This document shows, piece by piece, positions 2,431 to 63,103 of a DNA stretch of 64,000 bases. Source of the stretch: Euryarchaeota archaeon UBA130 (GTDB lineage Archaea; Thermoplasmatota; Poseidoniia; Poseidoniales; Thalassarchaeaceae). The translations under genes and the position numbers were made by a program. How positions within the stretch are numbered: position 1 is the stretch's first letter; every line of letters begins with the position of its first letter. Where the stretch lies: NCBI GenBank assembly GCA_002505775.1, contig DAVY01000009.1:101614-165613 (forward strand), in the 5' to 3' direction. The notes under the pieces are model-generated. The model saw nothing but the letters and a program-made list of their open reading frames with translations. It was not told the origin of the DNA and ran no database searches.

Positions 2431-3483
2431 TCAACTGCTATTCCATGCAAGAGCATCAGTGAAGAAAGACACCAACCTTCCTTGGTATTCTGGATTCTCC
2501 CAAACTGCATCCACATGACCAGAATCCTCGATCATCCATAGCGTCACGTTCGCATCCGAAGCAAGAGCCCTATCATAGAACATCTGAGAATGAAGGGGGG
2601 AAATTCTCCCATCATCTTCGCCATGCGCAAGATACATCGGCCTTTCTCCAGCCTTGGATGCAGCGGTCATTGGTGGCACCTCATTAGGATTAATCCCGAT
2701 AATTCTCTCCCCCATTGCAATAGCAGGTGATGCCAGCATCTTTGGATACCCAAGTCTCTCCAGCTCATTCTCAACTAGCAATGGAAAGTCGATGATCGCA
2801 CTATCCAACCACATAGCTTGTATCTCGGACTCTCCGAATGCCAACGCTGTTGTAAGTGCTCCAGTAGATATCCCAAGTATGCCGATAGATGAGGAAGGAT
2901 AGGATTTTTCTTCCAAGAGCCAATCATATGCACCTAATACATCCAGATATTCCTTCTGACCTAGATACATATAGTCAGACACATTTTCACTAGCTCCATG
3001 ATTTCTGAGGTCAATCATCAGAGTATTAATGCCCCCGTCAGCTAAGTAACTGGCCGTAAGTAGAACTTCTGGTTTGCACTTTCCGTTCAGATATCCCCCA
3101 TGTACCAAAATTACAACCGGCGCAGACTCATCTACCTCTGAGTACCACGCTGCAATATTCAAACCATCTCGGCTACTGAAACTGATATTTTCGTAAGAAT
3201 CAAACTGCCACGGTGATGCGTCGAAATCCTTCCTAATTGAGATCCGGTTTTCTGAATCCGGCCAAGGCTCGAAGGACTCCCAATCATCATCCACAGTCCA
3301 ATTAGTTGGAGTATTAGACTCCCAAATTCCACATCCATGAGGTGAGGTCAAAGCCTGCATTGCGATTACGTGCCCCAAGCCGAACCAAATAGTTGGTACG
3401 AGGAGCAGGACCACGGCAGTTGAAACGGAGAAAATCTTCTTTCTTCGACTAATCGAGCCCCAATACTCCCTCGCCCCAGCCAT
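2431..3483 (-). CDS. membrane-anchored alpha/beta hydrolase
   Basis: 350 aa. N-terminal hydrophobic helix, nucleophile elbow GISTG, acid GEDDG and SGHVD near the C-terminus (Ser-Asp-His triad order). Confidence 0.75.
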   Translation of the reverse strand: MAGAREYWGSISRRKKIFSVSTAVVLLLVPTIWFGLGHVIAMQALTSPHGCGIWESNTPTNWTVDDDWESFEPWPDSENRISIRKDFDASPWQFDSYENISFSSRDGLNIAAWYSEVDESAPVVILVHGGYLNGKCKPEVLLTASYLADGGINTLMIDLRNHGASENVSDYMYLGQKEYLDVLGAYDWLLEEKSYPSSSIGILGISTGALTTALAFGESEIQAMWLDSAIIDFPLLVENELERLGYPKMLASPAIAMGERIIGINPNEVPPMTAASKAGERPMYLAHGEDDGRISPLHSQMFYDRALASDANVTLWMIEDSGHVDAVWENPEYQGRLVSFFTDALAWNSS

Positions 3484-3572
3484 GGTCCCAGAACACAGCC
3501 ATCATTGATGACTATTGCTGTAAATGGTATATCGACCGATGAGCACTTCAACCAAAGTCTACACGGAGCACC

Positions 3573-5219
3573 GTGGCGAGAGAGCTAATCCGTCTGGAAG
3601 ACGTGCATAGGGCGTTTGGTCCTCTGACAGTTCTAGAAGGAATCAATCTTAGAATAGATGAGGGAGATAGGATTGGAGTTGTTGGACACAACGGAGCTGG
3701 AAAGACTACACTACTACGTACGATTAGTAATCGAGATCAGGACATGGGCGACATAACGTATGCCGCTGGATTAAGGTTGGCATTCCTGACTCAAATTCGA
3801 GATATAGTGGAGGAAGCAACCCTCGGTGAGGAGCTAAACCGCAGAGGGAGGCAGTTTCAGGAGTTAGAGGACGAGATCTCCAAGATAGAGGGGATGATGG
3901 CAGACCCCGGATTCTATGATGGTGAATGGCAAAGTGCAATGGATAGGTATCAGGAGCTCCAGAGTCTGATGGCAAGATCCGGAGGAGGGGATGTAGCCGG
4001 ACATGCACAAGAAATTCTGAAGGCACTTGATTTAGCTCATCATTCGATAGATATCCCCCTCTCATCATTATCTGGAGGAGAGAGGGCAAAGGTGGCATTA
4101 GCCAGACAGTTGGTAGGGCTCAGAGAAATAGACGTATTTTTCCTAGACGAACCGACAAATCATTTAGATTTCCAGACATTGGATTGGTTGGAAAGGTTTC
4201 TGAATACATTCGAAGGAGCTCTATTGATAGTCAGCCATGATAGATACTTCCTTGACCGAGTATGCAACAACATAGTAGAGGTTCAAGATGCTCATCTAAA
4301 GGGATACAGTGGTAACTACACCTCCTTCTTGCATCAGAAGGAACTATTTCTACAGACATTACAAGATAGGATTGAGAAGACACAGAAAGAAGTCAAGAGG
4401 CTACTTGGAGCAATGCAGTCCATGAAAAGGGCCAATAAATACGACAAGTCAGTATCTCAGAAGCATGTCATGATTTCAAGGGCCCAAAGGGAATTAAAAT
4501 GGCTCAAGACACTCAAGCCACGTCAGAGGCAGTCTCTAAAATTTAACTTAAAATCAATAGAGAAGAGCAGTCTGGAGGTATTGGATTTTCATAATGCTAA
4601 ATTCTCGTTTCAAGATTTGAATAGGCCGATTATAAATGGCCTTGAAGTCGGCATAAGAAGAGGTCAGAAAATCGGCATAGTAGGGCCAAATGGTGCTGGA
4701 AAGACTACTCTTCTGAGATTAATTACAGGAGAAATTCAACTTGACTCCGGTTCGATTGACATCAGGCCCGGTGTCCAAATTGGTTATTTCCATCAAGATC
4801 ACAGATCACTGGATTTCAAATTAAATCCAGTTGAACAGGTTAAAGCCCTAAGGCCAAGAATGGATTATGGAGAAATTCGGGCACTTCTTGGACGGTTTCA
4901 ATTCACCAAAGATATGGTTAAGGTTCCATTGGGAAAACTTAGTGGAGGAGAGAGAGCAAGGATAGCACTCTTAGAACTCTTATTGGGAGAAAACAACATG
5001 CTCCTCTTGGACGAGCCGACAAATCATCTCGATACAGATGCAAAGGAAGCATTGGAAGAGACCCTCCAGGATTATGAAGGAGCTATAATAACAGTCAGTC
5101 ATGATAGATATTTCCTAGACAAAATTTGCGATACAATTTGGGAGTTACCAGGAGACGGGAGTCTATGGGTATGGCCGGGCAATTACTCAGACTATATCCA
5201 AAGAAAGAGCCAGCAATAA
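3573..5219 (+). CDS. ABC-F family ATPase (two ABC cassettes, no transmembrane domain)
   Basis: 548 aa with a GTG start. Walker A GHNGAGKTTLL and GPNGAGKTTLL, signatures LSGGERAK and LSGGERAR, LDEPTNHLD twice, SHDRYFLD twice, and a basic inter-cassette linker. Confidence 0.85.
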   Translation: MARELIRLEDVHRAFGPLTVLEGINLRIDEGDRIGVVGHNGAGKTTLLRTISNRDQDMGDITYAAGLRLAFLTQIRDIVEEATLGEELNRRGRQFQELEDEISKIEGMMADPGFYDGEWQSAMDRYQELQSLMARSGGGDVAGHAQEILKALDLAHHSIDIPLSSLSGGERAKVALARQLVGLREIDVFFLDEPTNHLDFQTLDWLERFLNTFEGALLIVSHDRYFLDRVCNNIVEVQDAHLKGYSGNYTSFLHQKELFLQTLQDRIEKTQKEVKRLLGAMQSMKRANKYDKSVSQKHVMISRAQRELKWLKTLKPRQRQSLKFNLKSIEKSSLEVLDFHNAKFSFQDLNRPIINGLEVGIRRGQKIGIVGPNGAGKTTLLRLITGEIQLDSGSIDIRPGVQIGYFHQDHRSLDFKLNPVEQVKALRPRMDYGEIRALLGRFQFTKDMVKVPLGKLSGGERARIALLELLLGENNMLLLDEPTNHLDTDAKEALEETLQDYEGAIITVSHDRYFLDKICDTIWELPGDGSLWVWPGNYSDYIQRKSQQ

Positions 5220-5325
5220 ACAGAATCCCGCTGTGTCATTCAGGCTCATCTTCCCACATTTACTCTATTCTATAACTGCCTATACTAAATAGAGTACCTA
5301 CGGGGGGCCTTTTGTAGGGTTCTCA

Positions 5326-6663
5326 GTGGTTCGATTCTCAGACTTAGGAATCAAGCCAAGCTTGGTCGAATCGCTTTCTAATGAGGGCATCATAGAACCC
5401 TTCGAAGTCCAAATTGAAGCCATACCAAGTGCGCTAGAAGGCAGAGACATATGTTGTAGGGCCCCAACTGGCTCAGGTAAGACCCTAGCTTTTGGCCTTC
5501 CTCTGATCTCAATGGCAAAACCGGCAGCATCTAAACGCCCCACTGCTCTGATATTAACTCCAACTAGGGAGCTAGCAGAACAGATAAGGAACGTTCTGGA
5601 TCCGTTGGCTTGGAGCTATTCTAAATTGAAAGTTCTCTCGATTTATGGAGGATCACCATACGGGAGGCAGATCAGGGCCCTAGAAAAGGGAGTAGAGATT
5701 ATAGTGGCATGTCCAGGAAGACTTCTGGACCTAATTGAGAGAGGAGCTCTGGCATTAGATGAAATCGATATTTTAGTTCTAGATGAAGCTGATAGGATGG
5801 CAGACATGGGATTCATGGAGCCAGTATGCAAGATTATTAACAAGTGTGCGAGTAATCCTCAGATGATTCTTTTCAGTGCGACACTAGATCGAGACGTCTC
5901 TAGACTAGTGAGGACGTACCAAAATGATCCTGTGAAGATTGAGGTAGGCCCTGAGGAAGTCAGTATGGAGACTATGGACCATAAGTTCTGGAATATCAAG
6001 CCACATAAAAAGACTGAGATAGCGGTGAAATCAGTCAGAAGATCGGGTAGGAGCATCATCTTCTGCAGAACCAGGGCTGGAGTAGATAGGCTTAGTGAGG
6101 AAATGAAGCTAGAAAGTGTACCCATCTCGTCCTTGCATGGGGGCTTGAATCAGAAACAAAGAGATCGAGCCATGAACAAATTCAGTAGTGGAAGGAGTAT
6201 GGTTCTCATCGCTACAGACGTGGCGGCACGGGGAATTGATGTTGATGGCATTAATTGTGTGATTCATTATGATCCTCCTGATGATGGAAAGGTGTACAAG
6301 CATAGAAGTGGCAGAACTGCTAGGGCTGGAAATAGTGGTACAGTAATATCATTTGTAAGGAAAAATGAACAGAGGACCTACAATAGAATTCAGAGAGAGG
6401 TGGGGATAAGGAAAAGATTCACCGACCCTAATCCCGAGGGACTCAAGAAAAATAAATTCGATCTAGTTCCCTCTAGAGAAGGAGAGAATGGCAGGGGTCA
6501 GAAGGCCAGAAAACCGAGGTCCAGAAGGGGACGCTCCAGAAATTCTAGAAGAGTCAGGGATAGAAAATCATCGGATACCGAGAAAAATAAGCCTCACCGA
6601 AACAAGAAGAAACGAAGACGGGGAAGAGGGCCAAAGAAGCGTAAGGCAGATGCCAGACCGTAG
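5326..6663 (+). CDS. DEAD-box ATP-dependent RNA helicase with Arg/Lys-rich C-terminal tail
   Basis: Motif I APTGSGKTLAF, motif II VLDEADRM, motif III FSATL, motif VI HRSGRTARAG. The last ~70 aa are almost entirely R/K/S/G. GTG start. Confidence 0.9.
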   Translation: MVRFSDLGIKPSLVESLSNEGIIEPFEVQIEAIPSALEGRDICCRAPTGSGKTLAFGLPLISMAKPAASKRPTALILTPTRELAEQIRNVLDPLAWSYSKLKVLSIYGGSPYGRQIRALEKGVEIIVACPGRLLDLIERGALALDEIDILVLDEADRMADMGFMEPVCKIINKCASNPQMILFSATLDRDVSRLVRTYQNDPVKIEVGPEEVSMETMDHKFWNIKPHKKTEIAVKSVRRSGRSIIFCRTRAGVDRLSEEMKLESVPISSLHGGLNQKQRDRAMNKFSSGRSMVLIATDVAARGIDVDGINCVIHYDPPDDGKVYKHRSGRTARAGNSGTVISFVRKNEQRTYNRIQREVGIRKRFTDPNPEGLKKNKFDLVPSREGENGRGQKARKPRSRRGRSRNSRRVRDRKSSDTEKNKPHRNKKKRRRGRGPKKRKADARP

Positions 6664-6710: not shown

Positions 6711-6785
6711 GCGGACATGGTCTAGTGGTTATGACAGCAGGTTCCCAACCTGCTAACCCGGGTTCAACTCCCGGTGTTCGCACCA
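6711..6785 (+). tRNA. tRNA-Gly (anticodon CCC), CCA encoded
   Basis: Hand-folded cloverleaf: acceptor GCGGACA/TGTTCGC, anticodon stem GCAGG/CCTGC with loop TTCCCAA, T arm CCGGG-TTCAACT-CCCGG, then discriminator A and CCA followed by TTTT. Confidence 0.9.
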
Positions 6786-15506: not shown

Positions 15507-15767
15507 TATCTATCTCTCCATCTCGTGTCTGCAGGTCCCCGTCTCTTACCCGATATGCACAGGATGGCAGGCACTGATATAACCGTTCTGTAGGATTTAA
15601 CTAACTTTAGTTACTTAACATCACACAAATAGCCCCAATTTTTGCTACAGAATTAAGTGTCGAAATGAAACCACGTACTTCTCCAATAGAAATGTGTAAT
15701 TATATGTAACTAAATAGATTAATTTAATACAAATATCTTATGTGGATTAATTAAGTGGTGGTAATTC
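15507..15767. promoter_or_regulatory. AT-rich divergent intergenic region with a 9-nt inverted repeat (candidate operator/promoter region)
   Basis: Lies between divergent genes. TTTAGTTAC at 15606-15614 and its exact reverse complement GTAACTAAA at 15706-15714. Several ATTAAT/TTAATT runs. GGTGGTG lies 7 nt before the ATG at 15768. One hand-counted 60-nt line (15661-15720) is 17/60 GC. Confidence 0.5.
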
Positions 15768-18383
15768 ATGCCGGATGTTGACAATAATCTGAATATTCAG
15801 TATCCTCCATCGCGTCCAATCAAGATTAGAAGTAGGAACAAGAGAAGGATCCTAAGATACCTAGCAGAGAGGAGCTCAACAGTCAGTGAAGTAGCCATCG
15901 CAACTGGAATCAGGGTCCCTCATGCATCAGCAGAGATTAGGAGGTTGAGAAATGATACACTGCTAGACAGTGACATGCCCTCAGGAAGCAGAGGTGGGAG
16001 ACTGCATCTGACAGAAAATGGCTGGGGAGTATTGAAATCAGACGAACTCGCAATGGCGTCAGAAGCGAAAACGATCTCTATGGAAGAGAGGGGATATTGC
16101 ATACTTTTTCGAGATGGACCTAATCTTCTCCTGGGATTAACCGGATCGCCAGACTCACCATTGTTGCCCATTCCCGACAGGCCCCCGGAGAAACTCGGAG
16201 GTGAAGAATTCTCCAGTGGAACTAAGGGGGTTCCATGGAGTTGGGCTGTGTTCACAGAGAGGTCTCCAAGATGGGTAGATCTTTCTACTAATGAATTCAA
16301 ATCAGCACCACCGGTGTATGATAGGGAGAAAATCGAGACTTTCTCTGAAAGTAAATCCATTATTGGGATAATTAGAGCGAGACTTCTGGATGAGGAAAGG
16401 CCGATAGCGATCGCACCGGGCGAATGGTTTTCCGCGCCAGATCACAGACCAAAACCCCCACTTCCAGAAGAATCCATGCACAGAGGTAATTGGACTCTCG
16501 CAAAATGTCATGAAATGTCACCAGATATCAGGCCATCGTCGACTATTGTGGCAGTTGTGTCGGAAAAGCTACCCAGAACCATGCTTTTGAAAGCTGCAAA
16601 GAGCGGATCTTTGATCATCGCCGACTTAACCGGATTTGAATCAAACAGTGATAAACTCCCTTTAGAATCTCTCGATCATTGGATTTCAATAGCTCATCCT
16701 AGACTATCTGAGGCAGAGAGAAATAGAAGATGCCAAGCTCTGAAGGATAGAATATCCGGGACCAGAAGGGCGAGAACCGAAGACTCCACATGGAGGAGAT
16801 TTAGACAGGATTGGGGAAACTCTGAATTCTCATCATCCTCAAATCATCCGAGACTACTGGATACGAGAAGTTTAGGGAAAGCAGCTTCAGAATCACTCAC
16901 TAGATGGGCTCTATCTAATGATGAAAACCCTCCATTGGTAATTGACGTACCAGACAACATTTCAAACGATTTAGCGAATTCTATTTCTTCAAATCCAAAT
17001 GTTAGAATGGTACTGACAAAGAGAAATTTGGAGCCGTTCTCAGGGATGGACAGTGTACGGATTGATCATCTCAGGCCTCTCCCATGGATGGTACTTTCAA
17101 CTAAAGGGGGCAGGGAGGTGCCAATCAGAATTGTTGATCCAATCCTCCATTCTCCTGACACACATCAGATACCACTATCGAAGGAAAAAGATAGCCATAT
17201 TACCAATGAGCTAAAGGCTCTGGCAAGCTCAATTGATGACAAAGAGTATCAATCAATGGTGAGGTCCGCAATCTCTCAATATCCTGAGGGAAATGAAGAT
17301 TGGGCCAACAGGATGGAAGCGAGATATCCAGTAGCAGCCTGGATAGCGTCACCTCCCCGTTCCAGATGGCCAAGGTGGCAGAGGCTAAGCTCTAGGTTAA
17401 ATCCAGAATGGCTAATAATCCTTGATTTTGATCACCTTCCTTTGGAGGGTCTTTCTGAGGTAGCGGATGTTGCACCACAGTCAGTATTGGAGGTTTTTTC
17501 AGTGGAGTTCACACGTCTGCTAAGAACAGATCAAAATACCGCACTCAAATCTAGACCCACTATAGATCCTAGAAATGCTACTCGTGGGTCATCATGGGTT
17601 GCATCCCAGTTATTGGCAAACTCTGCTTGGCTTCCTGAGTCATTTCATGATGATCTGATTGAATGGTCCTTGGGAGTGTGGCTTGCCCATCCTCCAATCA
17701 AATCAATAAACACTATACAGGGACTTGTGTGGCTCTTCTCTTCTAGTGAGAGAGTTTCAGAGGATAAAGAGATTTCAATATTGAAAAAGATACTTTCCAA
17801 AGCCTCACAGTTGCCTCTTGACCACGATATGAGGTCTTGGGCCATTCTAGATAGGGTAACTCCGAAAAATATAGATCCTTCATTTGAAGAAATAAAGCTA
17901 ATTCTAACCAATTTACCCCTAGAGTGGTGGGCGCATATCTCCTCGGATTTACTGGAGGCAATGTTACAAGATGACAAAGCTTTCACATGGCTTGTAAGTA
18001 AGAGTATATCATGGCCGGCAGCCGTTCTCAGACCTGTGGGGTTTGAAAGTAAATTCCCTTTTCATCGTTCGTTAAACTACGAGGGATGTAGTTCCAAAAT
18101 CAGGGGATTACTATCTAGAAGGATAAGAGGTAAGGAAGATTTTTCATCAGAGGCCGAACCACTTTTTGATTTACTGGAGGCACTCGATGCACTTAATGAG
18201 AACAGGCCTCCAAAAATGGGGAATACTCATTCATTGGTAGGATGGTTAGCACAGCCCGCTGAGAGATGGCCAGAATTCAGTGTCAAAGAAATCTCAGAAG
18301 GGGATACCTATGTTATGGAAAGTCTGTTGCTAAAAAGAACCGGTTTCCATCAAGATCTGATTTCAAAAGGTACTTTTGACTAG
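15768..18383 (+). CDS. large orphan protein with N-terminal ArsR/TrmB-like winged-helix domain
   Basis: 871 aa. Residues ~25-90, RRILRYLAERSSTVSEVAIATGIRVPHASAEIRRLRNDTLLDS...GGRLHLTENG, look like a wHTH. The remaining ~780 aa are Trp/Ser/Pro-rich with no P-loop, nuclease, methylase or other motif I recognise. Confidence 0.7.
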   Translation: MPDVDNNLNIQYPPSRPIKIRSRNKRRILRYLAERSSTVSEVAIATGIRVPHASAEIRRLRNDTLLDSDMPSGSRGGRLHLTENGWGVLKSDELAMASEAKTISMEERGYCILFRDGPNLLLGLTGSPDSPLLPIPDRPPEKLGGEEFSSGTKGVPWSWAVFTERSPRWVDLSTNEFKSAPPVYDREKIETFSESKSIIGIIRARLLDEERPIAIAPGEWFSAPDHRPKPPLPEESMHRGNWTLAKCHEMSPDIRPSSTIVAVVSEKLPRTMLLKAAKSGSLIIADLTGFESNSDKLPLESLDHWISIAHPRLSEAERNRRCQALKDRISGTRRARTEDSTWRRFRQDWGNSEFSSSSNHPRLLDTRSLGKAASESLTRWALSNDENPPLVIDVPDNISNDLANSISSNPNVRMVLTKRNLEPFSGMDSVRIDHLRPLPWMVLSTKGGREVPIRIVDPILHSPDTHQIPLSKEKDSHITNELKALASSIDDKEYQSMVRSAISQYPEGNEDWANRMEARYPVAAWIASPPRSRWPRWQRLSSRLNPEWLIILDFDHLPLEGLSEVADVAPQSVLEVFSVEFTRLLRTDQNTALKSRPTIDPRNATRGSSWVASQLLANSAWLPESFHDDLIEWSLGVWLAHPPIKSINTIQGLVWLFSSSERVSEDKEISILKKILSKASQLPLDHDMRSWAILDRVTPKNIDPSFEEIKLILTNLPLEWWAHISSDLLEAMLQDDKAFTWLVSKSISWPAAVLRPVGFESKFPFHRSLNYEGCSSKIRGLLSRRIRGKEDFSSEAEPLFDLLEALDALNENRPPKMGNTHSLVGWLAQPAERWPEFSVKEISEGDTYVMESLLLKRTGFHQDLISKGTFD

Positions 18384-18413
18384 CCAAAATGGACCGAGGG
18401 GTTCATTTCCCAT

Positions 18414-18708
18414 CAGGTGTGCCCGGGACTGCCCAGCGGCAACACCCTGTTGACAAAACCCCCTCGCCGGAGGTTGAGAATGAAACATGGTACCACGTAT
18501 GGGTAGCCATCTGTCGAAGACCAGTAGGATCATCATCGATGAAATGAATACTGGCGCAAATCAGGTGGCCGGACCATGTTAGGTCCCCTGAGGACCCGTA
18601 GGGGATGAATCAAGGGACTACCCCATGGTCCGACAGACGTCCCGGGGTGGGTCAGGCGCTCGAGCCAAGCTGTGAAGGTCGCCGTTACGCCCCGGGGCAC
18701 ACATTTTT
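18414..18708 (+). ncRNA. candidate structured non-coding RNA (~290 nt), identity unknown
   Basis: No credible ORF. Two hand-counted 60-nt lines are 40/60 GC, against 21-26/60 in the upstream gene. Ends pair: GTGTGCCCGGG 18417-18427 with CCCCGGGGCACAC 18690-18702, followed by TTTTT at 18704-18708. Internal helices: CGGACCATG 18570-18578 with CATGGTCCG 18624-18632; CCCGGGAC 18422-18429 with GTCCCGGG 18639-18646; CCAGTA 18521-18526 with TACTGG 18549-18554; hairpin GGTCC-CCTGA-GGACC 18582-18596. Strand was chosen from the T-run and gene orientation. Confidence 0.45.
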
Positions 18709-18740
18709 CCAAAGCCCTCAATACTTCTCACTTCTACAGA

Positions 18741-19790
18741 ATGGTGATGAAAGCCCTTGGCCTGTTGGGCGGAACCTTTGATAGATTCCATAAAGGGCAT
18801 AGAAAATTATTGGAAACTGGGCTCAGCGAGTGCCAGAATCTGGAAATTTGGATGACCTCTGACAATTTAGCTAAGAGTAAGGACCCCCGAATCGATTCTT
18901 GGGATGACAGAAAGGAACTGATTGTCAACTCATTGGTTGGAGATGTCCGAGAAAGGATATCATTTCACGTTCTAGAGGATCTCTATGGCCCAGCAACTAT
19001 CAGGGAAGATGTCCAAGCAATTGTCTGCACACCTGAAACTGTGGACAACTGCAAGAAAATCAACTCTCTCCGTTTGGAGAACTCCTTGGCGCCATTGCAT
19101 ATCGTCATCGCCGAACATGAGTTGGATTGGATGGGTAGGCCAATTTCCAGCACCAATATTAGGAGGGGAATAATGGACAGGGAAGGATATCCCTGGCTAC
19201 ATGAGGAAATAGGATTATTTGATCTAATTCTGAACCAAGATGTTGAATTATCCTTGAAGACACCATTCGGGCAACTCGTTGAGGGAGACGAGGATGATCC
19301 CAAATTGGCTATGAGAGAGGTGTTAAGTAGAATTTCCGACTCTACTGGGCCAATAATTGCGGTTGGCGATGTAACTGTGAAGACCCTTCAAGATCTGGGA
19401 CGTTCAGCTGACATCGCGCTAATTGACGGAATGACCAAGCGTCAGAAGTGGAACGGGTCCTCAGAAATTGATGAGAGGCTCTTTGACTCCGTCCTCAGAT
19501 GCTCCAACCCACCAGGCCAGATAACCCCGGACCTGTACAGATGTTGCATTGAGGCAATCTCCAAGTTTGGATACGGTAGAGGTGAAGATAAATCTCAATC
19601 CACATTGATAGTCATTGATGGTGAAGAAGATCTGGCCCCGCTCATAATCCACCCTTTGACTTCGCTTGGTTCAGTGATTCTGTATGGTCAGCCTGGAAAG
19701 GGAGTGGTCATCAGATATACTGATCTCGATGCAAAAACTAGGTGTAGGAACCTATTGGAATCGATGGATGGAGACTGGTCACAAAGGTAG
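18741..19790 (+). CDS. fused phosphopantetheine adenylyltransferase (archaeal PPAT) and GTP-dependent dephospho-CoA kinase (DUF359)
   Basis: N-terminal half has the nucleotidyltransferase motif GGTFDRFHKGH. C-terminal half has AVGDVTVKTL, IDGMTKRQ, IDGEEDLAPL and ILYGQPGKGVVI, which I recognise as DUF359/archaeal DPCK. The ORF track starts at 18672; I prefer ATG 18741 (MVMKALGLLGG). Confidence 0.8.
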   Translation: MVMKALGLLGGTFDRFHKGHRKLLETGLSECQNLEIWMTSDNLAKSKDPRIDSWDDRKELIVNSLVGDVRERISFHVLEDLYGPATIREDVQAIVCTPETVDNCKKINSLRLENSLAPLHIVIAEHELDWMGRPISSTNIRRGIMDREGYPWLHEEIGLFDLILNQDVELSLKTPFGQLVEGDEDDPKLAMREVLSRISDSTGPIIAVGDVTVKTLQDLGRSADIALIDGMTKRQKWNGSSEIDERLFDSVLRCSNPPGQITPDLYRCCIEAISKFGYGRGEDKSQSTLIVIDGEEDLAPLIIHPLTSLGSVILYGQPGKGVVIRYTDLDAKTRCRNLLESMDGDWSQR

Positions 19791-20429: not shown

Positions 20430-21668
20430 TCATAATCTGCTTTGGAGAGCATATTTCTCCTCAGATGCCTGGGCCACCAAGGCTTCAGAATCACTCAAGG
20501 TTGAGATTACATCAATCCCTCTGGGGACAGCGGAATTCACTTGTTTACTTCTACCTCCTCTTCCCTTGCTAACATTTCTGGCCATTATCAGCCCAAGGGT
20601 GTCCAGCTCATTCAGTAGAGAAGATATCCTCCTTGCAGTCAGAGGTTCGACTGAAATTTTCAAACAGGCATCTGAGTAAGTCCTGAATACTTCTCCCGTG
20701 CTGATATTTCTTAGGCCATTCTCCTCATTGAGTTTGATGGTAAATAAAACCAGTTTTTGGTGCAAAGGAAGGGTCCTCAAGACAGGAGTGACCTGATCGT
20801 ATTCTAATTGGCTCTGGGCCAATCTTACATGAGGAGGAGAGACCGACTCATGTCCCTCCTGCTCAGCCTTTTGGACGGAGATCCTGAGAAGATCCAAGGC
20901 CCTTCTAGCATCACCGTGTTCAGATGCTGCCAATGCCGAACATAGCTCTATTACGCCATTTCCGATAGAATCCTGTCGCAAACCTGTCTTGGCCCTATCT
21001 TCTAGAATATCCTGAATCTGAGCGGCCCCGTATGGATGGAATACTAGGTCCTCCTGGCTCAGCCTAGAGCTGACTCTCGGGTCTAGGTGTTGAGTAAAGT
21101 GTAGATCATTACTGATGCCAATTATGCAACACCTTGAAGACTTTAGAACGGTATTGAGATTTGTAAGATTGTAAAGGATACCGTCTCCAGCCCTTGCCAC
21201 AAGATTATCAATCTCATCAAGAACGATGATATGGACGCCTCCTTCCCTGTCCATTCTTGTAACCAGGGTGTCCAGAACTCTGTCTGTTGGCCATCCAGTA
21301 AATGGGATAGGGGCATCTCCCCTGTGGGATAGTTGCGAGGCGATATTTTGTACTACCCTGTACTTAGTGTCTATATTCCTACAATTTATCTCGTAGCTGA
21401 AAACTGGCTCACCCATTTCCTTCCCTTTGTCAAGAAGCTGTGAGAGTACATATCTAGTGACTACAGTTTTTCCTGAACCAGGAACTCCGTAGAGTAGCAT
21501 ATTCGAAGGGATATGACCGTTCAATGCGTCAACAAGATTCCTAACCAGCGCGTCGACCTCTCCTCCTCTGTGAGGGAGTTTATCAGGCTCGAAGGCGTGA
21601 TCGAAAGCCCTCCTATCAATAAACAAGCTCTCCTGTCCAAGAATCTTTTCGAAAATGTTTCTCTCCAT
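20430..21668 (-). CDS. cdc6: Orc1/Cdc6 replication initiator
   Basis: 412 aa. Walker A YGVPGSGKT, Walker B IIVLDEIDNL, sensor region, and a C-terminal winged helix. Faces an AT-rich intergenic region. Confidence 0.9.
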   Translation of the reverse strand: MERNIFEKILGQESLFIDRRAFDHAFEPDKLPHRGGEVDALVRNLVDALNGHIPSNMLLYGVPGSGKTVVTRYVLSQLLDKGKEMGEPVFSYEINCRNIDTKYRVVQNIASQLSHRGDAPIPFTGWPTDRVLDTLVTRMDREGGVHIIVLDEIDNLVARAGDGILYNLTNLNTVLKSSRCCIIGISNDLHFTQHLDPRVSSRLSQEDLVFHPYGAAQIQDILEDRAKTGLRQDSIGNGVIELCSALAASEHGDARRALDLLRISVQKAEQEGHESVSPPHVRLAQSQLEYDQVTPVLRTLPLHQKLVLFTIKLNEENGLRNISTGEVFRTYSDACLKISVEPLTARRISSLLNELDTLGLIMARNVSKGRGGRSKQVNSAVPRGIDVISTLSDSEALVAQASEEKYALQSRL

Positions 21669-22057
21669 TTTCTAACACTCCTTGCACATGTCGTCGAACT
21701 ACTCTCCTACTCCCCATCTGAGTGGTTGAATAGCCAACGCGGATTGACAGCGAACAAGCTCCAGATAATAAGCCTCTCTGAAGAATCAGTAACTCAAGTA
21801 AGTTTACAACAGTAAATTGCATTCAAGTTTACTTTCTACATCAGTAATTTTTTTTGTCCTGTAAACAACTTTCAGTATCTCGTTTTTACATTTTTTTATC
21901 TGGTGCAAATATCTCACTGTAAAAGAAAATATCCATCAACATAATATGATAAAATAGTCAATCATGGAGTATGAATGATATTCAATTTTTTTAACTCGAA
22001 TGATCTAGAATGTTATATCATCCGAATTATTTTGACGAGATGAGGTATATATGCATG
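21669..22057. other. candidate replication origin (AT-rich unwinding region plus short repeats) upstream of cdc6
   Basis: 389-bp non-coding stretch. T-runs at about 21847-21856, 21890-21898, 21984-21992 and 22057-22080. AAGTTTAC at 21800-21807 and 21825-21832, with inverted GTAAAC at 21861-21866. TCAGTAA at 21786-21792 and 21841-21847, plus CAGTAA at 21810-21815 and TCAGTA at 21872-21877. Confidence 0.55.
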
Positions 22058-62948: not shown

Positions 62949-63103
62949 GCCGGGGTGGCGTAGTTGGTAGCGCGTCGGACTCATAGGGTAACTTTCTGCG
63001 GGGGGCTCAGCCCCTCTGGAGCTAGTCGATGAGCGCAACAGCCTAACTGAAGATTGTCTGAGACATCCGAAGGTCGCGGGTTCAAGTCCCGCTCCCGGCA
63101 CCA
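62949..63103 (+). tRNA. tRNA-Met (anticodon CAT; elongator type, or Ile2) with a 79-nt intron at 37/38, CCA encoded
   Basis: Hand-folded. Acceptor GCCGGGG/TCCCGGC. D arm GCGT-AGTTGGTA-GCGC. Anticodon stem TCGGA (62975-62979) / TCCGA (63066-63070), with loop C-T-CAT-A then the intron at 62986-63064. T arm GCGGG-TTCAAGT-CCCGC. The G1-C72 pair argues against an initiator. Bulge-helix-bulge: helix CTCA 62980-62983 / TGAG 63059-63062, flanked by 3-nt bulges. Confidence 0.85.

Follow-up and report, generated by a model that had tools for sequence, protein, structure and literature searches.

What kind of element is the GC-rich stretch that stands directly in front of a CoA-synthesis gene in a genome of the Poseidoniales? 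The window (the whole stretch of DNA analysed, 64,000 nt) has a GC content of 55-60% at 18400-18800, against approximately 43-49% in the flanks, and the gene that follows is, as a preliminary description had proposed, a PPAT fusion (CTP_transf_like + DUF359). The same description took 18414-18708 to be a structured non-coding RNA with mutually exclusive helices and offered two hypotheses, a stand-alone RNA partnered with the upstream 871-aa orphan or a CoA-responsive leader of the PPAT gene. Here we present evidence that the locus is very probably the gene for a stand-alone box H/ACA guide sRNA of Poseidoniales (Thalassarchaeaceae), a divergent ortholog of HgcG/Pab40/Pf7/Afu4 with an extra 5' hairpin. 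Its most likely function is to guide the pseudouridylation of key positions in the large rRNA.

Compared with shuffled sequences the plus strand folds with z = -3.3 and the minus strand with z = -1.75. With nhmmer a homolog of the RNA was found directly 5' of PPAT-DUF359 at each of 72 Poseidoniales loci, a count that comprises only the loci holding enough upstream DNA. E-values across related loci range from 1e-34 to 1e-96, and the identity of the neighbouring gene's protein falls to 45-55% across the 72 loci. The gap between RNA and gene is approximately 30-45 nt, always on the same strand. An apparent insertion of about 280 nt in the L007 homolog is not real; the inserted run of N represents a scaffold gap. 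The conserved RNA corresponds to approximately 18430-18703 of the plus strand (roughly 272 nt) and is thereby somewhat shorter at the 5' end than originally proposed (18414); the stretch between an upstream promoter-like block and the first hairpin is not conserved among the 72 homologs. The suggested partnership with the upstream orphan found no link either; in other lineages the upstream sequence differs, and the RNA and the promoter-like block stay constant.

RNAalifold returned four hairpins in succession from the 72-sequence alignment (Table 1). In the refined four-hairpin model 93.3% of cells are paired (slid controls, 34-44%), and both partners have changed in 29 pairs (422 cells). None of 500 shuffles matched the observed percentage of paired cells, the both-side pair or cell counts, or the covariation score. 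The number of further pair types, by contrast, does not stand out, being reached by 51 of the 500 shuffles. Each hairpin comprises a lower stem, an internal loop and an upper stem, backed by covariation in all four. The extra lower-stem pairs of hairpin 1 covary in the alignment (CG/CG, CCG/CGG, GCU/AGU, UGCU/AGCA), compensatory changes are present in 14 pairs of helices 4-6 in hairpin 2, and hairpin 3 includes a U-A to G-C covariation (alignment columns 193/230).

Table 1. Coordinates of the predicted RNA, its guide units and the flanking signals in the window
Feature	Position	Strand	Remarks
Promoter-like block ACCGAGGGGTTCATTT	18393..18408	+	~22-37 nt 5' of hairpin 1
Hairpin 1	18430..18505	+	covariation in helices 1-3; extra relative to HgcG/Pab40
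Hairpin 1 lower stem	18432-35/18500-03 plus 18437-38/18496-97		
Hairpin 1 pocket	18439-43; 18492-95		5' GCAAC; 3' ACCA
Hairpin 1 upper part	GA 18452-53; UGA 18481-83		10-layer GA stem; K-turn motifs; no ANA box after
Hairpin 2	18506..18569	+	aligned to Pab40 motif 1; within Rfam HgcG alignment
Hairpin 2 lower stem	18506-13/18562-69		
Hairpin 2 pocket	18514-20; 18555-61		5' UCGAAGA; 3' CGCAAAU
Hairpin 2 K-turn	GA 18528-29; UGA 18545-47		C-stem 18530-34/18538-42
Hairpin 3 + ACA box	18570..18635	+	ACA 18633-35; helices 7-8; aligned to Pab40 motif 2
Hairpin 3 lower stem	18570-78/18624-32		
Hairpin 3 pocket	18579-85; 18617-23		5' UUAGGUC; 3' ACUACCC
Hairpin 3 GA stem	18586-94/18607-16		A18612 bulged; K-turn GA 18593-94, UGA 18606-08
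Hairpin 4 + ACA box	18639..18701	+	ACA 18699-701; helices 9-11; aligned to Pab40 motif 3
Hairpin 4 lower stem	18639-47/18690-98		
Hairpin 4 pocket	18648-54; 18684-89		5' UGGGUCA; 3' GUUACG
Hairpin 4 K-turn	GA 18662-63; UGA 18673-75		
T5 run	18704..18708	+	2 nt 3' of terminal ACA; then PPAT-DUF359 start 18741

The K-turn signature, a 5' GA and a 3' UGA, is invariant in all four hairpins (72/72 sequences), from which we infer a K-turn fold and a putative L7Ae site in each. The GA stems of hairpins 1 and 2 have 10 and 9 layers, and those of hairpins 3 and 4 have 9 layers and a bulge each. The ACA boxes 3' of hairpins 3 and 4 are invariant as well (72/72) and stand 16 nt and 15 nt from the respective upper stems. 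Published rules for archaeal H/ACA RNAs are 10/5-6/9 and 14-15 nt (PMC4652768, PMC2377435), and the values measured on the predicted fold are close to these, although the 16 nt of hairpin 3 exceed the 14-15 nt. No ANA/ACA box is conserved 3' of hairpins 1 and 2 in any lineage; GCC and CGG stand at the expected 14-15 nt, and hairpin 2 adjoins hairpin 3 with neither a linker nor an ANA box. The pockets of hairpins 1 and 2 are invariant or almost so across the family while the stems vary by compensatory changes, as would be expected of pockets that function as guides.

At gathering thresholds an Rfam search of the whole window gave three tRNAs only. The match to HgcG (RF00064) surfaced only when 18300-18800 was searched by E-value (E up to 10); it spans 18452-18706 and model positions 1-276 with 38.1 bits (E 4.4e-9 in this 501-nt search). 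Within it, hairpin 4 matches HgcG and, weakly, Pab160. HgcG was also matched in L059 (33 bits, E 1.6e-7) and L017 (26 bits), with no match in the divergent lineage L077. The match is significant, yet scores of 26-38 bits are below the Rfam gathering score of 77; the RNA is therefore a divergent relative and not a member of RF00064 by Rfam's rule. A significant match to a housekeeping RNA, which the preliminary description had named as evidence against its own reading, was in substance obtained, albeit below the gathering score.

HgcG/Pab40/Pf7/Afu4 is a three-hairpin H/ACA sRNA of Pyrococcus, Archaeoglobus and Methanocaldococcus. Hairpins 2-4 align in order to its three motifs (structured model part 58-268), and both RNAs have a K-turn or K-loop in each motif. 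In either RNA it is the middle motif that is atypical; that of Pab40 has an ambiguous fold and low activity (PMC2377435). Unlike Pab40, the marine group II RNA has an additional 5' hairpin, four in all; archaeal H/ACA RNAs have one, rarely two or three hairpins (PMC7991803). It further differs from the HgcG consensus, which has aACA after motif 1, in that no ACA follows the aligned hairpin 2, and from HgcG/Pab40 in the joining of hairpins 1/2 and 2/3 without a linker. The hosts differ too, that of the marine group II RNA being an uncultured mesophilic marine lineage.

Targets for the four pockets were sought in 16S and 23S rRNA. Marine group II 23S contigs were searched for through spurious ORFs antisense to the H. 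marismortui 23S gene, and complete 23S genes came from L209-L212, reached via L205. The 23S used is that of L209, a Thalassarchaeum, which is another genus of the same family and not the genome of the window; the taxon of L209, and likewise that of L205, was assigned via the adjacent eIF-6 gene. L206 and L208, in which the 16S gene adjoins the 23S gene, were rejected as other archaea; L207, with a 23S identical to that of L206 at two compared sites, was grouped with it and set aside. L204 was rejected because its sequence close to the peptidyl-transferase centre is atypical. In marine group II the genes for 16S and 23S rRNA are unlinked.

The pocket of hairpin 4 pairs with GUAAC-UA-UGACCC of the L209 23S (5+6 bp) in helix 69, leaving E. 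coli U1915 unpaired. This is the unique best hairpin 4 site in three archaeal 23S rRNAs, and 5 of 400 shuffled guides do equally well. Pab40 motifs 1 and 3 have been assigned P. abyssi 23S 2588 and 2016, respectively, so that the helix 69 site (2016) is the one published for motif 3 (PMC2377435). The pocket of hairpin 2 pairs with UUGC-UA-CUUCGA (4+6 bp) around E. coli position 2496, with 9 of 400 shuffled guides doing equally well. This segment lies at the foot of helix 89, beside the peptidyl-transferase centre. The rRNA reads CUUCGA in marine group II and CCUCGA in H. marismortui, and the guide reads GAAG in marine group II and GAgG in the HgcG consensus; the two together are a guide-target compensatory difference. 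The 2496 site fits the consensus pocket of Pab40 motif 1 (PMC2377435, Table 1), and by our own mapping P. abyssi 2588 appears to be equivalent to E. coli 2496. Hairpins 2 and 4 would then each share the 23S site of the Pab40 motif to which they align, 1 and 3 respectively.

The other two pockets gave less. The best site for hairpin 1, GGU-UU-GUUGC (3+5-6 bp) in helix 93, is matched by 63 of 400 shuffles, and on the 3' guide side, treated in the literature as the more important, it is held by only 3 bp. The E. coli 2605/2606 region of helix 93 is probably the target of hairpin 1, though a weak candidate. Pab35/HgcF motif 2 guides pseudouridylation in the same neighbourhood, at P. abyssi 23S 2697 in helix 93 (PMC2377435). 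The likeness is one of target region only, it depends on a weak prediction and on our own numbering offset, and hairpin 1 has no Rfam match to HgcF. For hairpin 3 neither the 16S nor the 23S rRNA of marine group II offers a convincing target, since 339 of 400 shuffled guides do equally well. A candidate that a search of E. coli rRNA had given at U2244, near the P-loop (7+4 match), was discarded: the marine group II 23S reads GGGCAGUUUGGGUGGGG, and the guide of the O1 clade differs too. For no hairpin was a convincing 16S target found in the marine group II 16S contigs (Eury806 probe target), and perfect targets of hairpins 1 or 3 in the marine group II DNA examined were chance-level matches only.

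Another multi-hairpin archaeal guide is the double stem-loop H/ACA sRNA sR-h45 of Haloferax volcanii. With its 3' hairpin it acts on uridines 1940/1942 of helix 69 (H. volcanii numbering; PMC7075261) and with its other hairpin on a domain V uridine, a theme shared with the RNA described here. In the case of sR-h45, UNUN stays unpaired and both uridines are modified. Here the second uridine (UGACCC) is paired by the pocket of hairpin 4, and therefore only the first helix 69 uridine is predicted to be modified. The two RNAs also differ in that the marine group II RNA has no ANA after hairpins 1 and 2. The Pyrobaculum guides sR203-sR210 have a K-turn-bearing upper stem and function with a degenerate or absent ANA box (PMC4652768); hairpins 1 and 2 resemble them as guide units with a K-turn upper stem and no ANA. 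However, the Pyrobaculum units have lost the lower stem, whereas hairpins 1 and 2 have retained one, well supported and 6-8 bp long, and form part of a larger RNA that includes canonical ACA-bearing units.

The missing boxes raise the question of whether all four units are guides. The RNA could be H/ACA-derived with active guides only in hairpins 3 and 4, hairpins 1 and 2 being L7Ae-binding structural or chaperone modules or decayed guides. The absence of ANA boxes and the weak predicted pairing of hairpin 1 speak for this, as does the finding that the internal ANA of sR-h45 is required for activity of its 5' hairpin (PMC7075261). Against it stand the near-invariant pockets within stems that change in a compensatory manner and the 4+6 bp fit of hairpin 2 to the presumed Pab40 motif 1 site with its compensatory difference; moreover, the ACA box is dispensable in vitro for typical single stem-loop guides (PMC7075261). 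We consider such a division improbable. The arrangement of four guide units head to tail without linkers, with two 5' units that have lost their ANA boxes and pockets still under strong selection, might amount to an undescribed H/ACA architecture, a proposal that we make with little confidence. Cbf5 could be recruited to the box-less units via coaxial stacking on, or cooperation with, their ACA-bearing neighbours; another option is that hairpins 1 and 3 have targets other than rRNA, or serve as chaperones of folding.

The signals around the RNA bear on whether it is a transcript of its own. The conserved block ACCGAGGGGTTCATTT appears to be BRE/TATA-like and is a putative promoter. A block of the type ACCG[AT][GT]RGGTTC[AT]T stands at a constant distance in most listed lineages, regardless of the sequence further upstream, and the most divergent lineages differ at a few of its bases (ACGAGGGGTTCAT in L017 and L033, ACGATGCCTTCAT in L077). 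Similar ACCGA...T/A-rich blocks are located at equal distance 5' of the window tRNA genes at 6711 and 32971; the promoter reading is tentative because the survey 5' of tRNA genes drew on only the 3 genes given by aragorn. The T-run that had been noted at 18704-18708 is present and is probably an archaeal oligo-T termination signal. It is found in the clade of the window and in the O1 clade and is missing from several other lineages; termination at this point is therefore inferred, and may be leaky.

A cis-regulatory leader of the PPAT-DUF359 gene, a riboswitch or attenuator in which exclusive helices and a terminator-like helix with the T-run control CoA synthesis, would agree with the position of the RNA in all 72 loci, with the T-run in the window, with plausible read-through in the lineages that have none, and with the complementary alternative segments. 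All four complementarities named in the preliminary description exist as written in the window, but only one is backed by the 72 homologs. That one, the 9-bp helix 18570-18578/18624-32, is the lower stem of hairpin 3 (95% of cells paired, 4 pairs changed on both sides). The terminal helix 18417-18427/18690-18702 has 38% of cells paired, which is no improvement on slid controls (29-37%), and no compensatory change; its 5' arm is in the non-conserved stretch and its 3' arm is the hairpin 4 lower stem plus ACA box. The CCCGGGAC/GTCCCGGG alternative is paired in 47% of cells, the same as slid controls. The helix 18510-18522/18627-18637, which would compete with the hairpin 3 stem, is 78% paired, nearly all via invariant columns, with one both-side pair and ends that fail, which amounts to essentially no covariation. 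Its columns are the hairpin 2 guide pocket on one side and the hairpin 3 lower stem plus ACA on the other, and the pairing is probably a chance complementarity of two elements that are each constrained. Covariation, suggested earlier as a check, thus holds for the four-hairpin fold and not for the terminal and alternative helices.

What is conserved instead of a switch is a series of four independent hairpins with K-turn and ACA signatures, the only Rfam family matched is an H/ACA guide, and for two internal loops the rRNA match falls on a known pseudouridylation site. No terminator-like hairpin 5' of the T-run was found in the scan. A leader is on these grounds very improbable. Of the two original hypotheses the stand-alone RNA is the closer to the evidence, and a CoA-responsive leader is not supported. 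The tight and universal linkage of the RNA to PPAT-DUF359 is most simply attributed to genome compaction or read-through transcription rather than regulation by a CoA metabolite. In a further reading, held with little confidence, a single transcript would give rise to both the sRNA and the CoA-synthesis mRNA across the family and so couple them.

Another housekeeping or K-turn RNA (SRP, RNase P, C/D box sRNA) or a translated region has next to no probability and is already effectively refuted: the size of approximately 270-290 nt and the GC-richness recall archaeal 7S and RNase P RNAs and small ORFs overlap the region, but no SRP, RNase P or archaeal C/D family of Rfam matched (window at gathering thresholds; 18300-18800 at E up to 10), the first reading having likewise found no SRP or RNase P motif, the alignment has compensatory substitutions and indels that are not multiples of three, and the overlapping ORFs are just 52-62 aa, on both strands.

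For the stand-alone H/ACA guide the following course of events is proposed. Transcription would start approximately 25 nt 3' of the promoter-like block, near 18430, and the RNA would end after the terminal ACA, near the T-run. The transcript would fold into the four hairpins, and each K-turn would bind L7Ae, by analogy with solved archaeal H/ACA RNPs. The lower stems and ACA boxes would be held by the PUA domain of Cbf5, together with Nop10 and Gar1. The internal loops would then pair with rRNA on either side of the target uridine, which Cbf5 would convert to pseudouridine.

The Poseidoniales are among the most abundant archaeal groups of the surface ocean. To our knowledge no H/ACA guide has been described from them. 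A tempting false lead, the CoA riboswitch, is replaced here by a concrete annotation for an RNA that escapes Rfam's curated threshold. The 72-sequence alignment can seed a covariance model to annotate the gene in all Thalassarchaeaceae genomes. The layout of four hairpins, two of them ANA-less, offers a test case for the need for an ACA/ANA box in multi-hairpin archaeal guides. For the ribosomes of these archaea, the guide predicts pseudouridines in helix 69 and, close to the peptidyl-transferase centre, at the foot of helix 89; a further one in helix 93 is possible.

The gap that runs from the stop codon of the 871-aa ORF to the ATG of the PPAT-DUF359 gene holds a GC-rich segment (55-60% at 18400-18800 vs about 43-49% in the flanks). 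The + strand has a folding energy of -125 kcal/mol (z = -3.3 vs dinucleotide shuffles), and the - strand of the GC-rich region gives z = -1.75. RNAalifold predicts four hairpins in series, each with an internal loop. In the refined model the lower stem of hairpin 1 is longer, with CG/CG, CCG/CGG, GCU/AGU and UGCU/AGCA interchanging, and small helices capping the K-turns are added. Standard pairs fill 93.3% of the cells in this model, compared to 34-44% in controls where the same helices were tested with a slid partner strand. Changes on both sides affect 29 pairs (422 cells) vs 6-12 in the controls, and the covariation score is 0.277 vs 0.04-0.07. The model surpasses all 500 shuffles in percentage paired, in covariation score and in the numbers of pairs and of cells with two-sided changes; for further pair types its count is undistinctive (51 of 500 shuffles). 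The structured GC-rich RNA proposed in the preliminary description is borne out.

The complementarities listed in that description are all present in the window sequence, but only the 9-bp helix 18570-78/18624-32, which forms the lower stem of hairpin 3, is upheld by the homologs. In the terminal helix (18417-18427/18690-18702) 38% of cells pair, as in its slid controls, with no compensatory changes; the CCCGGGAC/GTCCCGGG helix, at 47%, is also at the level of its controls. The helix said to compete with the 9-bp one (18510-22/18627-37) pairs in 78% of cells by way of invariant columns, which have other grounds for their invariance, and changes on both sides occur in one pair only. Because two of these helices stay at control level and the third depends on invariant columns, mutually exclusive folding is unsupported. 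These long-range and alternative helices are unconfirmed, and the idea of a riboswitch or long regulatory leader was rejected in favour of a very probable H/ACA guide RNA.

The anatomy of the hairpins is that of H/ACA units. A 5' GA and a 3' UGA are invariant in all four among the 72 aligned Poseidoniales homologs (alignment A2), a layout that marks a K-turn or K-loop. Between the pocket (the internal-loop guide strands) and the sheared pairs lie 10 layers in hairpin 1 and 9 in each of the other three, with one bulge in addition in hairpins 3 and 4. Hairpin 3 reads, in the last two digits of 18586-18616, C86-G16, C87-G15, C88-G14, U89-A13, bulged A12, G90-C11, A91-U10 and then three non-canonical pairs; U-A to G-C covariation at A2 columns 193/230 backs this register. 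The upper stem lies 16 nt from the ACA in hairpin 3 and 15 nt in hairpin 4. Published rules call for about 10 layers in the GA stem, 5-6 nt in the 3' pocket strand, 9 bp in the lower stem and 14-15 nt between target and ANA (PMC4652768, PMC2377435); the values found here fit, or nearly fit, these rules. The lower stems of hairpins 1 and 2 are well supported. No ANA box follows these two hairpins; GCC and CGG, with which the next hairpin begins, occupy the expected positions because the hairpins abut without a linker. The apical sequence of hairpin 1, CCCCCUCGCCGGAGG (18459-18473), is almost invariant across the family, which would seem to exceed what a K-turn cap needs.

Features of the sRNA locus and best predicted 23S sites of its hairpins
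Feature	Window position	23S position	Description	Basis
871-aa ORF	15768-18383		Ends upstream of the sRNA	No Pfam match at E ≤ 0.001
Hairpin 1 GA/UGA	18452-53/18481-83			Invariant in A2
Hairpin 2 GA/UGA	18528-29/18545-47			Invariant in A2
Hairpin 3 GA/UGA	18593-94/18606-08			Invariant in A2
ACA after hairpin 3	18633-35			Invariant in A2
Hairpin 4 GA/UGA	18662-63/18673-75			Invariant in A2
ACA after hairpin 4	18699-701			Invariant in A2
T5 run	18704-18708			Window sequence
PPAT-DUF359 gene	ATG at 18741		Downstream of the sRNA	CTP_transf_like (PPAT) and DUF359 domains
Hairpin 4 best site		Helix 69, E. coli U1915	GUAAC-UA-UGACCC, 5+6 bp	Equalled by 5/400 shuffled guides
Hairpin 2 best site		E. coli 2496	UUGC-UA-CUUCGA, 4+6 bp	Equalled by 9/400 shuffled guides
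Hairpin 1 best site		Helix 93, E. coli 2605/2606	GGU-UU-GUUGC(U), 3+5-6 bp	Equalled by 63/400 shuffled guides

At Rfam gathering thresholds the whole window yields three tRNAs only. An E-value search of 18300-18800 gave a single strong match, RF00064 HgcG (Pab40), at 18452-18706 over model positions 1-276 (38.1 bits, E 4.4e-9; gathering score 77), as well as a weak Pab160 match over hairpin 4. Two relatives also match HgcG, L059 with 33 bits (E 1.6e-7, model positions 58-268) and L017 with 26 bits; L077, the homolog that diverges most, has no HgcG match. In the alignment, hairpins 2-4 take up the structured part of the model. The sRNA is evidently related to HgcG/Pab40 and would act like it, and is called a divergent ortholog because it falls outside the family by the Rfam threshold. 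To our knowledge, no H/ACA guides have been described for the host lineage. HgcG/Pab40/Pf7/Afu4 is an experimentally studied sRNA with three H/ACA motifs, of which motif 1 directs pseudouridine 2588 of P. abyssi 23S, motif 3 directs position 2016 in helix 69, pseudouridylated in almost all studied organisms, and motif 2 is ambiguous in its fold and weakly active (PMC2377435). Archaeal H/ACA RNAs are described as having one hairpin, rarely two or three (PMC7991803). The marine group II sRNA differs from HgcG/Pab40 in starting with an additional, fourth hairpin (hairpin 1, at the 5' end and without counterpart in the model), in lacking the ANA box in two of four units, and in the fusion of its hairpins without linkers.

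Homologs of the PPAT-DUF359 protein carry names of Thalassarchaeaceae (marine group II / Poseidoniales). Scanning species-representative genomes gave 80 Poseidoniales loci, and the sRNA lies directly upstream of the PPAT-DUF359 gene in all 72 with enough upstream DNA (nhmmer, query 18400-18720; E 1e-34 to 1e-96), where protein identity falls to 45-55%. More distant lineages do not keep the 871-aa ORF 5' of their sRNA. The conserved block extends from TGCCCA (~18430) to GGGGCACAC (18703); the 20 nt before it, including the 5' arm of the terminal helix, are unconserved. One clade (O1-type; L011-L019, L022, L030-L035, L039, L044, L049) has a 12-nt insertion (e.g. AGAACGGAAGAG) at the hairpin 3 apex (A2 columns 204-215) and a U to A change in the 3' pocket strand, ACAACC vs ACUACC elsewhere. 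An apparent 280-nt insertion in the L007 homolog was dismissed as an assembly artefact, being a run of N; this run (2611-2890), a scaffold gap or masked stretch, lies between duplicated sequence.

An ACCG[AT][GT]RGGTTC[AT]T-type block (window 18393-18408) stands at a fixed distance 5' of hairpin 1 in most lineages listed. It was found about 25-40 nt 5' of the sRNA as ACCG...GGTTCWT in 17 of 18 lineages inspected (L059 was missed by the anchor pattern), is retained whatever the sequence further upstream, and differs at a few bases in the most divergent lineages. Similar ACCGA...T/A-rich blocks occur at the same distance upstream of two window tRNA genes (6711, 32971). We infer that this block serves as promoter for a stable-RNA gene that stands on its own and starts near 18430, in which case the 5' arm of the terminal helix (18417-27) would fall outside the RNA. 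It may be the stable-RNA promoter of the lineage, differing from a classical TATA box. Some clades have the T-run 3' of the terminal ACA and others lack it; transcription may therefore read through into PPAT-DUF359, which may account for the invariant synteny. At 18710-18728, in the stretch leading from the sRNA to the PPAT start codon, a tail TTCCAAAG(N)CCTCAA(T/G)ACT is common to the window's clade and the fairly distant O1-clade loci (L017, L033, L037) and missing in others. This tail may act as the promoter of the PPAT gene itself. Elsewhere in the window, a very AT-rich stretch (21700-22000, GC 0.26-0.36) upstream of the start of an Orc1/Cdc6 gene (20430-21668, - strand) could be a replication origin. 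A second AT-rich dip (GC 0.29) lies at 15600-15800, ahead of the 871-aa ORF, and a tRNA gene with an 81-nt intron at 62949-63100 (Rfam tRNA model, 56 bits) was missed by ARAGORN.

The window holds no rRNA genes. Marine group II 16S contigs were retrieved via the Eury806 probe target and 23S by way of spurious antisense ORFs. In L205 the eIF-6 gene, from a cluster named Candidatus Thalassarchaeum, adjoins 23S, and longer contigs (L209-L212) carry a complete 23S gene at about 2852-5705 and eIF-6 at 6001-6663, the 23S gene being immediately upstream. No 23S was found within several kb of 16S on 120 marine group II contigs (L082-L201), so the two genes are unlinked in this group. The Thalassarchaeum 23S was scanned for uridines with flanks complementary to both pocket strands. 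Helix 69 is the best site of hairpin 4 also in H. marismortui and another archaeal 23S. In the hairpin 2 match the 3' strand has its first base, a variable one, unpaired. The HgcG motif 1 consensus pocket (…GcGAgGa / uGCGAc) fits the same segment in other archaea, reading UUGCUACCUCGA. The U of marine group II CUUCGA faces a guide A and the C of H. marismortui faces the HgcG consensus G, which we read as a compensatory difference between guide and target. We infer that the hairpin 2 site would be P. abyssi 2588. The hairpin 1 pocket is short (GCAAC / ACCA), and the helix 93 site takes up nearly all of it in a predicted match that is statistically weak. By our numbering offset its neighbourhood would be that of P. 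abyssi 2697, which is modified via Pab35 in a region often modified in eukaryotes (PMC2377435). Hairpin 3 has no convincing site in marine group II 23S (339 of 400 shuffled guides equal its best); an attractive E. coli match at U2244 was discarded, as it is not retained in marine group II rRNA. In an archaeal metagenome 23S (L204, reverse strand, about 3820-3840), UCGCUGUCGG takes the place of UCGAUGUCGG, the peptidyl-transferase-centre sequence that is otherwise near-universal.

The ACA is dispensable in vitro for typical single stem-loop guides, and the double stem-loop sR-h45 needs its internal ANA (PMC7075261); natural guides that lack ANA occur in Pyrobaculum (PMC4652768). Hairpins 1 and 2 have strictly conserved pockets whereas their stems covary freely, which argues that both would still pair with targets despite the missing box. 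The sRNA is very probably a housekeeping H/ACA pseudouridylation guide RNA, and its variant features deserve specialist attention.
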